A stretch of 60,977 nt of DNA, from positions 1 to 60,977 of the forward strand of contig JBGSST010000158.1 in NCBI GenBank assembly GCA_041736915.1. Reading direction: 5' to 3'. Positions within the stretch are counted from its first letter, which is position 1. Every line of letters begins with the position of its first letter. Both the position numbers and the translations under genes were made by a program. Source of the DNA: Bdellovibrionota bacterium. Its GTDB lineage: Bacteria > Bdellovibrionota > FAC87 > UBA2466. Shown piece after piece: positions 49,985-58,264 of this stretch. The notes under the pieces are model-generated. The model worked only from the letters and a program-made list of their open reading frames with translations, did no database searches and was not told where the DNA came from.

Positions 49985-51388
49985 ATGGAACATAAAATTT
50001 TAGTCGTCGATGACAACGCCGATAACCTGGAAGCTACCGAGCTGCTTCTTCGAGACAATGGCTATGAAGTCGATGTGGTTCGTACCGCCGCCGGAGCCGT
50101 TGAGAACATCAAACGTGATAGCAGTGGATACTCTCTCGTAATTCTCGACTATCACCTTCCAGACAAGACAGGTGCAGATGCACTTGCTGCACTTCGCGCT
50201 ATCAACCCAAACCTGTACGTTCTCGTTTACTCGGGCGACACGAAGTCGCGTGATCCGGTCAAGGCGACGTTACGCGGTGGAGCCGTTGATTTTATCGAGA
50301 AGAGTGAAGATCCACGCTATTTCCTGAGCATCGTTCAACAGTGGTGTACCAAGTTTGACGAAACGACCCGGATTCTGATTCCTCCCGCCGCTCTTTCTGA
50401 AAACGAGAGATTGATTCGCAGTCTAGGCATCGCTGGCCGCTCCCAGGCGTTAGCCCAAATATGTCTCGACATTCAAAAGTACGCTCGCGAAGAGGCGGGA
50501 GCCAACGTCCTCCTCCTCGGTGAAACCGGAACCGGCAAAGAAGTCATTGCTCGCGCTATCCACCGCAACAGTCCACGCAACAGCGGGCCGTTCGTCGCGA
50601 TCAACTGCGGTGCTATTCCTGAAACCCTAATTGAGAGCGAACTATTCGGCCATGATCGCGGTGCATTCACCGGCGCTAACATGCGCAAAGAAGGCAAGTT
50701 CGAGAACGCCAATCGTGGGACGATCTTTTTGGACGAAATCGGAGAAGCAACACTCGCAACGCAAGTAAGACTCTTACGGGTCATTCAGGAAAAAGTCGTT
50801 ACTCCGCTCGGCAGCAATCGCCTGGTGAAAGTTGATGTACGCATTATCGCTGCCACAAATCGCGATCTCCTATCGGAAGTCGAGGCGGGAAGGTTTCGCG
50901 AAGACCTGTATTATCGCCTCAACATCATCTCTATGCACATTCCTCCGCTTAAGGAGCGCCGAGAGGATATTGCACCGCTGGTCATGCACTTCTGCGATCA
51001 GATCAATCGAGATAAGAATAAGAAAAAGAGTTTCCTGATGCGCACCGTCCGGTTGATGGAAAACTACTACTGGCCGGGCAATGTACGCGAGCTTGAAAAC
51101 TATGTGACCAAACTTCTGACTCAGAGTGAATCAGAGACGATCACGCCCGAATGCCTCGACGCTAAATTTTTCAGTGTAGCACCGCTTCAGACGTTGACGT
51201 TGCCTGATCTCGTCAGTCGTCAGGAAAAAGAGCGATTCGATTTCATTTCGGAAAATCTCAAATCATCAAAATCAATGCGTGATGCCGCAAAGAAAATGGG
51301 TGTTTCAAAGAGCACGCTGCATCACATGCTGAAAAAATTCGGTGTTATTAGGGGCGACGCCTCGAAGGAGGTATCTAGTGCAAGGTGA
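49985..51388 (+). CDS. Sigma54-dependent response regulator (NtrC family: REC, AAA+, Fis-type HTH)
   Basis: REC (ILVVDDN, LVILDYHLPDKTG), Walker A GETGTGKE, GAFTGA loop present (DRGAFTGA), Walker B IFLDEIGE, C-terminal HTH (MRDAAKKMGVSKSTLHHMLKKFGV). ATG at 49985 follows AAAGGGGAAG. The track ATG at 49940 would sit on top of the promoter. Confidence 0.9.
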   Translation: MEHKILVVDDNADNLEATELLLRDNGYEVDVVRTAAGAVENIKRDSSGYSLVILDYHLPDKTGADALAALRAINPNLYVLVYSGDTKSRDPVKATLRGGAVDFIEKSEDPRYFLSIVQQWCTKFDETTRILIPPAALSENERLIRSLGIAGRSQALAQICLDIQKYAREEAGANVLLLGETGTGKEVIARAIHRNSPRNSGPFVAINCGAIPETLIESELFGHDRGAFTGANMRKEGKFENANRGTIFLDEIGEATLATQVRLLRVIQEKVVTPLGSNRLVKVDVRIIAATNRDLLSEVEAGRFREDLYYRLNIISMHIPPLKERREDIAPLVMHFCDQINRDKNKKKSFLMRTVRLMENYYWPGNVRELENYVTKLLTQSESETITPECLDAKFFSVAPLQTLTLPDLVSRQEKERFDFISENLKSSKSMRDAAKKMGVSKSTLHHMLKKFGVIRGDASKEVSSAR

Positions 51389-52178
51389 AAGACTGTCCAT
51401 CAACTACCGAGATATTTCGGCTCTAGGTTATGATTACGTTCAAGAGAAAACTTACACCGCCGACCATCCCGATGTTGTCGCCTGGGCGAACTCGTTTTTG
51501 AGTCGTTTTAGGGAAAAGAAAATTTTTGAGCGGTTTGATTCCGAACAGGCTTCGCCATCACTTGTGAAAACGAAAGTAGTTGGTACTCAGTGGCACCGCT
51601 TCTCCGAGTTCATGCCCTACATCCTTTGCTCGGCATCGGCGAGGGTGTCGAATAACCGGCTGCGTCACTACACAATCCAGACGGCCTATGAGGAATTGGG
51701 GGCACGCAACGCCGACGAGATTCATCACGAGATGTTTTGGGAAACGGCTCTTGCGGCAGGTGCCCAAGACTCTGATCGCGCTCGGATGGCGAATGAACCA
51801 GAAATTAACGACGCCCTGAAATTCCTTGAGCACGTTTTAGTGACCGCGAAGTCGGATGAGGAAATCTTGGGGCTTCTTCTCGGTCTTGAAATTTGCGCTG
51901 AGGAGAATATCGAAACCGTATTCTCTTCGCTCGCGCATACAAAGGCGCTTGAAACCTCCCTCGCCGAAACGAAGTTCTTCAAACTACATCGCCAATTGGA
52001 GATGGAGCACATCAGGCTCGACGTTTCGATCTTCTTGCGTTTCTGCCAGACCTCCGAGGAAAAGACGCAGCATTTTACCAGCGGTTTTGATTCTGGCGTT
52101 CAGTTTTGGGATGAGTTTTGGTCTGGCATTGGAAAAATTATCGTTCGCGAGCAGCGCAGGGGGACTTCCCGTGCATAA
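51378..52178 (+). CDS. Heme-oxygenase-like diiron (HDO) / iron-containing redox enzyme family protein
   Basis: About 266 aa, all-helical. Candidate ligand motifs: YEELG...EIHHEMFWE, GLEICAEENIE and FFKLHRQLEMEHIRL. GTG at 51378 is preceded by AGGAGG. Confidence 0.6.
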   Translation: MQGERLSINYRDISALGYDYVQEKTYTADHPDVVAWANSFLSRFREKKIFERFDSEQASPSLVKTKVVGTQWHRFSEFMPYILCSASARVSNNRLRHYTIQTAYEELGARNADEIHHEMFWETALAAGAQDSDRARMANEPEINDALKFLEHVLVTAKSDEEILGLLLGLEICAEENIETVFSSLAHTKALETSLAETKFFKLHRQLEMEHIRLDVSIFLRFCQTSEEKTQHFTSGFDSGVQFWDEFWSGIGKIIVREQRRGTSRA

Positions 52179-56495: not shown

Positions 56496-58264
56496 GTTCA
56501 CAGAGGTCACATTTGAAAGATCCCAAACGCCTCGTCAGCGCTTTTATTGTCGGCTCGCTGACTGTCATCTTACTTTGCCTTTCTGTCACTGCGAGTATCT
56601 TTACCTATAGCTTTGTCACCAGGGAAACACAGAGGATCGAGATTTCTCACCGGCAGGTACTTCAGTTTTTCCAGTTTCAGCAAACTATCATCGGCGAGGA
56701 GATGTGGACGCGAAGTCTTGAGTCAATCGCGGCCCGCGTTGCCGGAATTGCCTCTCAACTAGGCGATGCGGAATACGATCTTTATCTGGCCGATGAGACT
56801 GGCGCTTGCCTTTTCCGCTCGCGGGGAAGTTTATCCGAGCATAATTGCACGGTTCCCGCTGAGCTGGGTGAATTCATACGACAGGAGCACAATCCAGCCG
56901 ATGTTAAACACGTTCTCCGCTTTGACGACAGGTCACAGCGTAACGTCTATATGACTCCGATTTTTGTCGGCTCAACGCTGAAAGGGTATCTCTACGCAAC
57001 ACTTACCGACCCGTATCATTTCTATCGTGGAGGCACTTGGTCGCTGATCTTTGAAATGTTTTTTCCGGCGATCTGCGTGATTCTTCTTGTACTAATTGTA
57101 TGGTTCTACGCCTGCAATAAATTGTTCCTCAAGCCATATCTTGAAAGCCTAGTCGAATTACAGAGAGAACAAGCGTTCGTTCAGACGGCCCAACAAGTTG
57201 CTCACGATTTGAAATCCCCGCTCGCAACACTTTTGCAAGTCACCGAGACTTTAAAGCAGGTTCCACCTGAGAGATTGCGCCTGATTCGCAATGCCGTTTC
57301 CACAATTCGCGATATCGCCAATAGTCTGATTGACAGGAAATGCGAAGCCGCCTCAGTTTCCATGACGAAACCAGCAATGGGTTCTAACGAACTGCCCTCG
57401 GTGCAGCTCCTTTCCAGTTTGGTCGATATCGCAGTCGCCGAGCGACGTGCGGAGTATCGCCACAGAGCTGGAATTGAAATTTCTGCGCAACCTTCAATTG
57501 AATCCTACGGACTCTTCGCCAAAGTGCAGCCGACCGAATTTAAACGTATGATGTCGAACCTTATCAACAACGCGGTCGAGGCAGTGGGTGGTGTCGGCCA
57601 GCTCGCTGTTAATATTTCATCCGAAGGAGAGCACGTTGTTGTTTCTATCTCTGATAACGGAGTCGGCATTCCTGCGGAGAGACTGCCGCTTCTCGGTGCT
57701 CGCGGCGTGACCTTCGGAAAGCCGAATGGTCGCGGACTCGGCCTATTTCATGCAAATGAAACTGTCCACGGTTGGGGCGGCGATCTCAAGATCGATTCCA
57801 AGGAAGGCAAAGGCACAACAGTTAAGGTGATCCTGCCACGCGCAGAAACGCCCAGTTGGTTCGTCCCAGCTCTATCCATTACCGAGAATACTACGGTAGT
57901 TATTTTGGATGACGACAGTTCTATTCACTACACTTGGGCGAATCGATTCAAAAACGCAGGTAAAAGCGCCAAAGCGATCAATCTCGTCAAATTTTCACGC
58001 GCCGACGAAGTTCTGGCGTGGCAAATGTCAGGCATGGCTCCAAAGGACGCCATTTATTTGTGCGACTATCAACTAAATCACCAGAGCAGAAACGGCCTCG
58101 ATGTTATCGAGGAGCTTGCGATTCAAGATCGTTCAGTTTTGGTCACCGGACATTTTGAAGAACGAGAGATCCGCGAGCGTTGTATGGCGCAGGGGGTGCG
58201 ATTGGTTCCCAAAGAGCTGATCGGCTTTTTGCCGATCCACGTTGCGCCGCTCGTTACCGTTTAG
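56492..58264 (+). CDS. Hybrid sensor histidine kinase (two TM segments, periplasmic loop, HisKA, HATPase, C-terminal receiver)
   Basis: H-box AHDLKSPLA, N-box NLINNAVEA, G-boxes DNGVGIP and GRGLGLF, C-terminal REC-like (VVILDDD...LCDYQL...VLVTGH). ATGA overlap with the binding-protein gene. Confidence 0.85.
   Translation: MSSQRSHLKDPKRLVSAFIVGSLTVILLCLSVTASIFTYSFVTRETQRIEISHRQVLQFFQFQQTIIGEEMWTRSLESIAARVAGIASQLGDAEYDLYLADETGACLFRSRGSLSEHNCTVPAELGEFIRQEHNPADVKHVLRFDDRSQRNVYMTPIFVGSTLKGYLYATLTDPYHFYRGGTWSLIFEMFFPAICVILLVLIVWFYACNKLFLKPYLESLVELQREQAFVQTAQQVAHDLKSPLATLLQVTETLKQVPPERLRLIRNAVSTIRDIANSLIDRKCEAASVSMTKPAMGSNELPSVQLLSSLVDIAVAERRAEYRHRAGIEISAQPSIESYGLFAKVQPTEFKRMMSNLINNAVEAVGGVGQLAVNISSEGEHVVVSISDNGVGIPAERLPLLGARGVTFGKPNGRGLGLFHANETVHGWGGDLKIDSKEGKGTTVKVILPRAETPSWFVPALSITENTTVVILDDDSSIHYTWANRFKNAGKSAKAINLVKFSRADEVLAWQMSGMAPKDAIYLCDYQLNHQSRNGLDVIEELAIQDRSVLVTGHFEEREIRERCMAQGVRLVPKELIGFLPIHVAPLVTV

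Follow-up and report, generated by a model that had tools for sequence, protein, structure and literature searches.

An operon of seven overlapping genes lies at 49985-58264 (+) in a contig from a Bdellovibrionota bacterium (GCA_041736915.1, JBGSST010000158.1), divergent from the transfer genes of an integrative and conjugative element (ICE), which raises the question whether it is merely carried by this element or takes part in its control. The window refers here to the whole stretch of 60,977 nt that was analysed; all coordinates are those of the window, and the loci compared with it (metagenome contigs, metagenome-assembled genomes (MAGs) and genomes) are labelled L001-L034. An initial annotation, made from the sequence alone, had described the operon as ICE cargo encoding an autoinducing signal circuit, and this interpretation was partly supported. 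The operon is a real, conserved and undescribed module with a new candidate signal chemistry. The label of cargo is probably wrong, and the operon is most likely a regulatory module of the ICE, because palindromic sites lie between its promoter and a second sigma-54-like element on the transfer (tra) side, and sibling ICEs keep a response regulator and a histidine kinase opposite tra.

In the mechanism that we propose, a diiron oxidase and an L-amino-acid-ligase-type enzyme, perhaps together with an atypical dehydrogenase, would use common amino acids to form a small product, either a modified amino acid or a dipeptide-like molecule, which would be exported by a transporter of the major facilitator superfamily (MFS). 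In the periplasm, an orphan LivJ-type binding protein would capture the molecule and report to the periplasmic domain of a histidine kinase, which would control the phosphorylation of an NtrC-type activator. The activator would bind four TGTCC-N8-GGACA sites and drive two divergent sigma-54 promoters: P(+), giving positive feedback on the whole operon, and P(-), giving transcription of a small zinc-ribbon protein and the mating-pair-formation genes. With this divergent wiring, transfer functions would switch on once the signal accumulates. The model makes concrete predictions (two promoters, four binding sites and one ligand). As a complete self-signalling switch of ICE transfer it is held tentatively, at just short of an even chance in our judgement, and its parts differ in strength.

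Proteins encoded by the operon

The seven co-directional open reading frames (ORFs) and all the overlapping or abutting junctions listed in the initial annotation were confirmed, with successive overlaps of 11, 8, 4, 1, 14 and 4 nt in the order given here:

49985-51388, + strand: NtrC-family response regulator (RR), with Response_reg, Sigma54_activat (4e-69) and helix-turn-helix (HTH) domains
51378-52178, + strand: heme-oxygenase-like diiron oxidase (HDO), Haem_oxygenas_2 PF14518 (54.6 bits against a cut-off of 28.9)
52171-53382, + strand: MFS transporter, putative exporter
53379-54629, + strand: ATP-grasp ligase of the L-amino-acid-ligase (LAL) type, ATP-grasp_4
54629-55354, + strand: atypical classical short-chain dehydrogenase/reductase (SDR), adh_short
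55341-56495, + strand: secreted type-I periplasmic binding protein (PBP), LivJ-like, Peripla_BP_6, with a signal peptide
56492-58264, + strand: hybrid histidine kinase (HK), HATPase_c/HisKA, with a receiver at the C-terminus

Sigma-70-like and terminator-like matches within the operon occurred at chance level. The protein families assigned initially were upheld by Pfam and NCBIfam searches apart from the 'MFS_3' subtype of the transporter, for which the MFS_1 match was sub-threshold and the match to TIGR00900 (DHA3, 1e-11) was far under the cut-off, so that the protein is weakly DHA3-like. Its gene always adjoins the HDO and ligase genes.

The profile and structure searches proposed in the initial annotation supported the assignments of the HDO and the ligase. 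For the HDO, the start at 51378 was backed by homologues beginning with MQ, and the AlphaFold2 (AF2) model (pLDDT 87) was all helical. Its best Foldseek matches were BesC, CADD, PolF, HamA, UndA and RohS (probability 1.00, TM-score 0.6-0.75, about 12% identity). Residues E106, H116, E171, H204, E208 and H211 were invariant in 25 sequences and aligned with the E/H/E/H/E/H of BesC (7twa); by this alignment the HDO keeps the 3-His/3-carboxylate dimetal ligand set. The HDO clade is small and sharply bounded, with 179 representatives in an exhaustive profile search of 1.84 billion proteins and a member in 10 of 185,579 species genomes.

When the profile of the ligase was compared with PDB entries, BL00235 (2e-28) and BacD (5e-16) were matched most strongly, followed by other LALs (1e-9 to 3e-8; RizA was also matched), whereas non-LALs such as PurD-like proteins (5e-7) and biotin carboxylase (1e-3) were matched more weakly. 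The AF2 model (pLDDT 95) had BacD and BL00235 at Foldseek ranks 1-5 (TM-score 0.78-0.81). Profile and model comparisons thus place the putative ligase nearer to the LALs (BacD, BL00235, RizA) than to other ATP-grasp enzymes. Its remote relatives, at 31-36% identity, are found within nonribosomal peptide synthetase (NRPS) clusters of Sorangium and Massilia. A plasmid collection held no close relative of the ligase, the best being one of 31% identity in a Massilia NRPS cluster, and no match to the sister-clade HDO described below.

The SDR keeps the NAD(P)-binding motif, the Asn and the Lys of its family, with the catalytic Tyr replaced by Phe156 and the Ser by Thr144. Phe occupies the position of the catalytic Tyr, as aligned with the Tyr of 3nyw, in at least 90% of the operon SDRs (alignment A5), and this Tyr-less type is kept across lineages at 44-86% identity. 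The SDR gene is missing from L004, L016, L007, L023 and L024. A BacC identity was rejected, as BacC was not among the best PDB matches and was no closer than generic SDRs. The initial annotation had seen in the SDR, ligase and transporter the logic of bacC, bacD and bacE of the bacilysin pathway. For the ligase this likeness stood, given its BL00235/BacD fold; for the SDR it failed, because of the two replaced residues and the absence of the gene from several loci.

A match to a known catabolic or cofactor pathway, a possibility raised in the initial annotation, was rejected, since no NCBIfam equivalog of such a pathway was found for the HDO, ligase, SDR, PBP or MFS protein. It is quite probable that the enzymes and the MFS protein make and export a small amino-acid-derived molecule.

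On the regulatory side, the translation of the RR shows the GAFTGA motif and the receiver Asp, with the HTH at the C-terminus. Its NCBIfam matches, to NtrC and other models, reached an E value of 1e-102 and were all under the equivalog cut-offs. The closest solved relatives of the PBP in the PDB profile comparison bind branched-chain or other amino acids. ABC permease or ATPase genes adjoined the Peripla_BP_6 PBP gene in none of the compared loci, and the kinase gene always came next after it, so the arrangement points to the PBP as a candidate co-receptor for the kinase.

The HK spans the membrane with two segments, and its periplasmic domain, of about 140 aa, is conserved and has two invariant cysteines. 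Among 12 sequences, H238 (H-box), N356/N360, D388-G390-G392, G415/G417, D473-475, D525 and K574 were invariant. The receiver falls under the Pfam threshold (Response_reg, E 0.023), yet all its catalytic residues are invariant, and by these residues the protein is a true hybrid kinase. Hybrid kinases normally need a histidine phosphotransfer (Hpt) protein for relay; an Hpt could be encoded by the host, or phosphotransfer could be direct. The HKs of L004, L008, L015, L016 and L020 bear an extra C-terminal extension of about 110 aa (alignment A4, columns 600-748), which the HK of the window lacks. It looks like a second receiver-like domain, because it starts with an acidic (L/V)(I/V)DDD or VEDD motif.

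Promoter P(+) and a divergent sigma-54-like element at the head of the transfer genes

The operon and the tra genes diverge from a 736-bp intergenic region. The relevant features, from the left end of the ICE, are:

30334-30410, + strand: tRNA-Val, left end of the ICE
30367-32151, - strand: large serine recombinase, left end of the ICE
33311-48996, - strand: tra/mating-pair-formation operon with F-like type IV secretion system (T4SS) genes
49043-49249, - strand: 68-aa zinc-ribbon protein (CPxCxS...CxxC), first gene after P(-), with a strong ribosome-binding site
49355-49340, - strand: sigma-54-like element P(-), TGGCACAGCCCTTGAA, 91 nt 5' of the zinc-ribbon ATG, heading the tra operon
49523-49540, 49569-49586, 49658-49675 and 49765-49782: four 18-bp palindromes TGTCC-N8-GGACA, candidate enhancer sites
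49919-49934, + strand: sigma-54 -24/-12 promoter P(+), TGGCATgacggTTGCT / TGGCATGACGGTTGCT, 51 nt 5' of the RR ATG

The ICE context of the operon is real, as given by the tRNA-Val and serine recombinase, the F-like Tra proteins and an FtsK-like ATPase. The G+C content drops along the window from about 0.59 to about 0.51. No second copy of the tRNA-Val 3' end (att repeat) was found within the window, and the right end of the ICE therefore lies beyond the contig end. From the P(-) side the tra operon encodes an 85-aa protein, TraU-like, a T2SSE-type ATPase, TraF, TraE, TraK, TraB/TrbI, TraC, TraH, an FtsK-like coupling protein and a relaxase-like protein, the match of the last being weak (Replic_Relax, 9e-4). 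The T2SSE/PilB-type ATPase in this F-like operon (46104-48739, - strand, 616 aa, E 5e-90) is kept in all sibling ICEs; its true start is probably further downstream, because the longest ORF overlaps the TraU-like ORF by 229 nt.

The sigma-54 promoter that the initial annotation had placed before the operon is confirmed as P(+), which is itself conserved, as are the candidate activator sites arrayed before it. TGGCA-N6-TTGCW has just two exact matches in the 61 kb, where 0.18 were expected, and P(+) is one of them. It has one mismatch to TGGCAC-N5-TTGCW at a non-critical position, and is kept at the same distance in L001, L011, L012 and L010. Sigma-54-like sites also stand directly 5' of the HDO gene in L013, L006, L017 and the three-gene locus L007. 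Internal sigma-54-like matches within the operon, such as that at 55556 (+), were not kept in L001 and were treated as chance.

The four palindromes are situated between P(+) and P(-), at distances of 146-388 bp from the former and 177-419 bp from the latter. With at most one mismatch, TGTCC-N8-GGACA matches nowhere else in the window; allowing two mismatches brings the count to chance level and gives no grounds for claiming more sites. Their positions are kept in L001, L011 and L012, and the proximal site also in L010, whose RR is only 51% identical. A generic inverted-repeat finder was too insensitive for 5-nt arms, and a custom scan of intergenic regions was used instead, which returned lineage-specific palindromes only.

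P(-) has a perfect -24 half, and its -12 dinucleotide is GA, not the near-invariant GC. Its 16-mer is identical in the four window-type ICEs (window, L001, L011 and L012), with a conserved block that starts at the -24 element, but the conservation of the motif is not separable from that of its surroundings, because the entire leader between P(-) and the ATG shows about 99% conservation in these four close relatives. More distant elements have comparable sites: in L008, TGGCACACTTTTCGCA precedes a zinc-ribbon gene followed by a gene for a sigma factor of the extracytoplasmic function (ECF)-like type and then tra, and in L010, TGGGCCATCTCTTGCA precedes a zinc-ribbon gene at the head of a T4SS that is VirB-like, not F-like. 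These zinc-ribbon genes are the counterparts of that of the window. The -12 dinucleotide of the tra-side site is GC in L008, L010 and L032, and GG in L004 and L034. Altogether, at least five ICE lineages, which between them have two types of T4SS, carry a sigma-54-like site ahead of the gene that opens the tra side.

These sites bear on the explanation that the operon is an autoinducing circuit carried as cargo only, which regulates itself or distant host genes, with P(-) not functioning as a sigma-54 promoter and the adjacency to tra being a coincidence. The GA of P(-) would fit this explanation, and so would chromosomal copies of the operon that have no tra genes in their vicinity (L013, L015, L016 and L017) and a Pseudomonas sister cluster that adjoins ICE genes without any regulator. 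It would not account for the tra-side sites in at least five lineages, for palindromes placed midway between P(+) and P(-), or for the RR and HK found opposite tra in every informative sibling ICE, and we regard it as improbable. The positions of the sites and the placement of the RR and HK instead make it more likely than not that the regulator-kinase module controls transcription on the tra side.

Conservation, modularity and sibling elements

Whether the gene order exists elsewhere had been left by the initial annotation to a survey, and loci were collected through the contexts of HDO homologues and a tblastn table. About a dozen lineages share this order, their proteins being 27-60% identical. 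The full order RR-HDO-MFS-ligase-SDR-PBP-HK is found in the close relatives L001, L011 and L012, and also in L010 (42-60% identity), L008 (30-55%) and L015 (27-45%), while L013 has all seven genes with the RR divergent. Reduced forms comprise the operon without the SDR (L004, L016), the operon without an adjoining RR (L006, L017), HDO-MFS-ligase alone (L007 and the Tolypothrix MAG contig L023) and HDO-PBP-STAND signalling protein-MFS-ligase (Blastocatellia contig L024). Named carriers are mostly Bdellovibrionota MAGs (Bdellovibrionaceae, Pseudobdellovibrionaceae, Bacteriovoracaceae and Oligoflexales), with single Elusimicrobia, delta-, gamma- and 'Polynucleobacter' bins. This recurrence supports a conserved unit rather than a chance juxtaposition of genes.

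Two of the loci carry features of their own. In L021 (GCA_036704275.1, 3.77-Mb contig, 8925-15751) the operon is decayed, with the MFS, ligase, SDR, PBP and HK in short ORFs and an insertion sequence element beside them. In L013 (glacier-stream MAG, 628-8907) the divergent RR is followed by PhzF-like, glutamate-mutase E, desaturase-like, EamA, semialdehyde dehydrogenase and amino-acid kinase genes, with a sigma-54 site CGGCACGACCCTTGCT (6707, - strand) within the string, and the whole may form a longer amino-acid-tailoring pathway controlled by the same regulator.

The most distant HDOs (L018-L020) have an APC amino-acid permease in place of the MFS protein and ligase and keep the PBP-HK pair. 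Such loci would suit a system for uptake and catabolism or detoxification, in which an amino-acid-like compound from outside is detected by the sensor, taken up through the MFS or APC protein and processed by the HDO, SDR and ligase. Substrate-induced operons under PBP-dependent or sigma-54 two-component systems are common. We nevertheless consider this explanation very improbable for the window, where no NCBIfam equivalog of a catabolic or cofactor pathway was found and the MFS protein resembles DHA3 efflux proteins, if weakly. ATP-grasp L-amino-acid ligases are biosynthetic, with the remote relatives of this one in NRPS clusters, and catabolism gives no reason for the conserved placement opposite tra.

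Cultured members of Pseudomonas, Chromobacterium, Paraburkholderia, Microbulbifer and Acinetobacter have HDOs of a sister clade (36% identity); carriers of the sister cluster include Pseudomonas sp. SZ57 and Chromobacterium sp. ATCC 53434. In Pseudomonas sp. SZ57 (L027, GCA_009495975.1, 9539-20774) the cluster encodes DUF2000, HDO, LAL, MFS, a WelO5-like Fe/2-oxoglutarate enzyme, SBP_bac_5 with an Opp-type ABC importer, ferredoxin, nitroreductase and LysE, and adjoins the ICE genes TraG_N, TraU and DUF1525 with no regulator. As the strain is cultured, L027 is a tractable entry to the chemistry. The union of HDO, ligase and MFS exporter with an SBP_bac_5/Opp-type importer, a layout that we take to be reminiscent of opine-metallophore loci, would agree with a secreted public good, for example a metallophore, that is exported, loaded and recognised in the periplasm, the kinase reporting the loaded form. 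For the window operon, which has no importer, outer-membrane receptor or metal-regulatory element, and whose PBP is of the amino-acid-binding and not the siderophore-binding class, this is hardly credible. What the cluster does show, together with the stand-alone forms (L007, L023) and the varied pairings (L024, L027), is that HDO-transporter(-ligase) behaves as a separable, putative make/export cassette repeatedly paired with an extracytoplasmic binder.

Because all these loci came via the HDO, metagenome contigs were also searched with the TraU-like protein alone. Every informative sibling ICE found in this way (TraU 52-55% identical) had a sigma-54 RR and an HK divergent from tra, with varying genes in between. 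L031 has RR-PBP (Peripla_BP_6)-HK opposite tra and no synthase. L032 and L033 (L032, 1067-7250) encode a sigma-54 RR, a 171-aa unknown protein, an SBP_bac_5 peptide-binding protein, a YcaO-like enzyme and an HK; in L032 a perfect sigma-54 promoter TGGCACGATGGTTGCT precedes the RR and a GG/GC site lies 30 nt before the first tra-side gene. This is possibly a signal cassette of the ribosomally synthesised and post-translationally modified peptide (RiPP) type. L034 has a glyoxalase-fold protein and a molybdopterin-oxidoreductase-like protein between RR and HK, and TGGCACGTATCTTGGT before the Sigma70_r4 gene at the head of its tra side.

It follows that this ICE family has conserved the RR-HK pair at the head of tra and that the genes between them are interchangeable, which argues that the module governs transfer. 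Coupling to transfer is thus the part of the initial annotation that was strengthened most, through the second sigma-54-like promoter facing tra and the RR and HK kept there by the siblings. The class of binder also tracks the class of enzyme, because an amino-acid-type binder occurs with the ligase and HDO, and a peptide binder with YcaO. This match, although indirect, is the strongest argument that the sensor reads the product of the linked enzymes.

The same loci give substance to a different explanation, an environment-sensing switch joined to an effector. Here the PBP, HK and activator would sense an external cue (for example a nutrient, an amino acid or a molecule that comes from prey, from the host or from other cells) and control tra, while the enzymes and MFS protein would make and export an effector that goes undetected, for example a mangotoxin- or bacilysin-like antimetabolite. 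L031, with sensor and regulator opposite tra and no synthase, is as expected from it; the closest solved relatives of the PBP bind ordinary branched-chain or other amino acids; and the characterised HDO + ATP-grasp and LAL + MFS pathways yield toxins (PMC13185094; BacD matches). Against this, the PBP and HK remain linked to HDO genes off ICEs (L013, L015-L018), three architectures each join the cassette to a different binder, and the peptide binder beside a peptide-modifying YcaO in L032 would be unexplained if sensing and synthesis were unrelated. We consider this explanation rather unlikely. That the ligand of the sensor is the operon's own product seems an even guess or slightly better.

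Several observations weigh against the self-signalling switch. L031 lacks a synthase, so this type of sensor can work on a ligand made elsewhere, and the synteny of PBP and enzymes cannot separate sensing of the product from sensing of the substrate, because linkage alone gives co-divergence. The APC permease of L018-L020 fits uptake as well as export. The SDR is atypical, dispensable and of unassigned role, and no Hpt domain was found in the scanned ORFs of 30-61 kb. The regulator gene of L008 has no recognisable sigma-54 promoter; on the tra side, the GA of P(-) and its inseparable conservation, together with the GG of L004 and L034, count in the same direction, as do the chromosomal operons without tra. 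Finally, all carriers of the full seven-gene operon that were found are metagenome contigs or MAGs, and cultured carriers have only the sister cluster. For the autoinducing circuit of the initial annotation, the architecture is therefore present and the HDO-MFS-ligase cassette separable, while sensing of its own product is beyond demonstration from sequence. Likewise, the synthase, exporter, receptor, regulator and positive feedback expected of quorum sensing are all recognisable here as predicted architecture only.

A wider reading covers the whole ICE family, carried mainly by Bdellovibrionota-type MAGs and also by other Gram-negative environmental bacteria. These elements would gate their own transfer with interchangeable signal cassettes, either an HDO/ligase molecule with a LivJ-type binder or a YcaO-modified peptide with a peptide binder, and in both cases the signal would pass through a hybrid kinase to a sigma-54 activator of two divergent promoters. 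This is speculative but possible. If true, the autoinducer would belong to a new chemical class, conjugation would for the first time be seen under sigma-54 enhancer-dependent control, and ICE signalling would show a 'pherotype'-like diversification. To our knowledge, signal-gated conjugation is established in a handful of systems, which use acyl-homoserine lactones with LuxR-type receptors or, in Firmicutes, ribosomal peptides. The locus would add a signal chemistry from a diiron oxidase and an amino-acid ligase, a receptor route through a PBP, a hybrid kinase and a sigma-54 enhancer-binding protein, and evidence of one ICE family swapping signal cassettes at a fixed regulatory site.

Other genes of the window were also inspected. 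A 300-aa P-loop protein (58306-59208, + strand) follows the kinase in the ICE-borne L001, L012 and L010 (82-85% identity in L001 and L012, 36% in L010), with no convincing terminator between the two genes in the window. It has a deviant Walker A (GAPGWAKT) and a Walker B-like VIVIDD, with weak STAND/AAA_16 matches and no other family. At 59221-60050 (- strand) a tandem-receiver protein is apparently split by a frameshift: a 176-aa ORF (59520-60050) stops where the second receiver starts (..NILIVDDN), and a 98-aa ORF in another frame (59221-59517) holds the remainder of the Response_reg domain (1e-16), which makes this either a pseudogene or a sequencing error. Just left of the tRNA-Val, at 25428-30228 (+ strand), lies a second candidate signalling trio with overlapping ends, consisting of an alpha-oxoamine synthase of the BioF/Kbl family (567 aa, including an N-terminal extension of 190 aa), a histidine kinase (630 aa) and a response regulator (402 aa). 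The synthase matches the CqsA/LqsA-type autoinducer synthase model (3e-57), the layout is as in the Cqs/Lqs alpha-hydroxyketone systems, and the G+C content of the trio (0.52-0.55) is lower than that of the chromosome to its left. An anti-phage defence role of the seven-gene operon was rejected, as PADLOC gave only a generic AAA+ similarity of the regulator to RtcR.

Comparison with known systems

The initial annotation had not recognised the gene combination as any described system. No match to it was found in literature and family searches, although clusters of HDO and ATP-grasp genes are already catalogued as a class (PMC13185094). Likewise, no description of the seven-gene combination or of sigma-54-dependent control of ICE transfer was found in the literature, the coverage of which was incomplete, so that this is absence of evidence.

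In wiring, the operon resembles the Vibrio LuxP-LuxQ/LuxU/LuxO system for autoinducer-2 (AI-2), with which it shares the route from a PBP through a hybrid kinase to an NtrC-type sigma-54 activator; the LuxO model was among the NCBIfam matches of the window RR (3e-85, under the cut-off). In the Vibrio system, the LuxS synthase is unlinked and the Hpt protein LuxU takes part, whereas none is seen here; LuxP is of the ribose-binding type and the window PBP of the LivJ type (Peripla_BP_6); and the targets of LuxO are small RNA genes, whereas here they would be the operon itself and, probably, the tra genes. The staphylococcal agr system (agrBDCA, P2/P3) likewise has signal production or processing, kinase and regulator in one autoactivated operon, and activator sites in an intergenic region that serves two divergent promoters. 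It differs in its ribosomal thiolactone peptide signal, LytTR-type regulator and sigma-70-type promoters, and it has no PBP and is not on a conjugative element. The HrpR/HrpS-HrpL cascade of Pseudomonas syringae, in which a sigma-54 activator acts on a sigma-54 promoter for an ECF-type sigma factor and thereby on a secretion system, is paralleled by L008 and L034, where a Sigma70_r4 protein is encoded by the first or second gene after the tra-side sigma-54-like site. That cascade serves type III secretion and not conjugation, has no linked synthase or PBP, and uses a sigma factor where the first tra-side gene of the window encodes a zinc-ribbon protein.

In function, the closest parallels are TraI/TraR (Ti plasmids, ICEMlSymR7A), RapI-PhrI (ICEBs1) and the enterococcal pheromone plasmids, in which signalling encoded by the element decides the expression of transfer genes (PMC8789080, PMC5812530). 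These systems differ in that their signals are acyl-homoserine lactones or ribosomal peptides and their receptors are cytoplasmic proteins of the LuxR, Rap or PrgX type. In the literature searched, no described ICE or plasmid system was found that has an HDO/ATP-grasp product or signals from a PBP through a kinase to sigma-54 control.

In chemistry, bacilysin (bacABCDEF) shares the BacD/BL00235 ligase fold and an MFS transporter encoded beside it, and differs in that the window SDR lacks the catalytic Tyr, prephenate-pathway genes are absent here, and the bac cluster has no HDO. The mangotoxin cluster (mboABCDEF) shares an HDO beside freestanding ATP-grasp amino-acid ligases that yield a small modified peptide (PMC13185094). 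It has two ligases where the window has one, and an MboB-type reductase with no counterpart here, and it lacks a built-in PBP, kinase or sigma-54 activator. MboA was not among the sequence or fold matches of the HDO, and the fold library may predate the MboA structures. Badding et al. (2026) catalogued 1,447 HDOs encoded beside ATP-grasp ligases, in clusters of at least 25 types (PMC13185094), and no mention of a histidine kinase or periplasmic protein was found in the searched text of that study and its supplements; their list includes A0A0X1T2G9, which is 36% identical to the window HDO. The clade of the window HDO is itself uncharacterised, and the operon gives it a functional context and a built-in candidate receptor, which should be useful to natural-product enzymologists because the PBP could serve as an affinity handle for the product. 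Overall, the nearest known systems are LuxPQ-LuxO, and also agr, for the wiring, TraR/TraI- or Rap-Phr-type control for the function, and HDO + ATP-grasp clusters such as that of mangotoxin for the chemistry.

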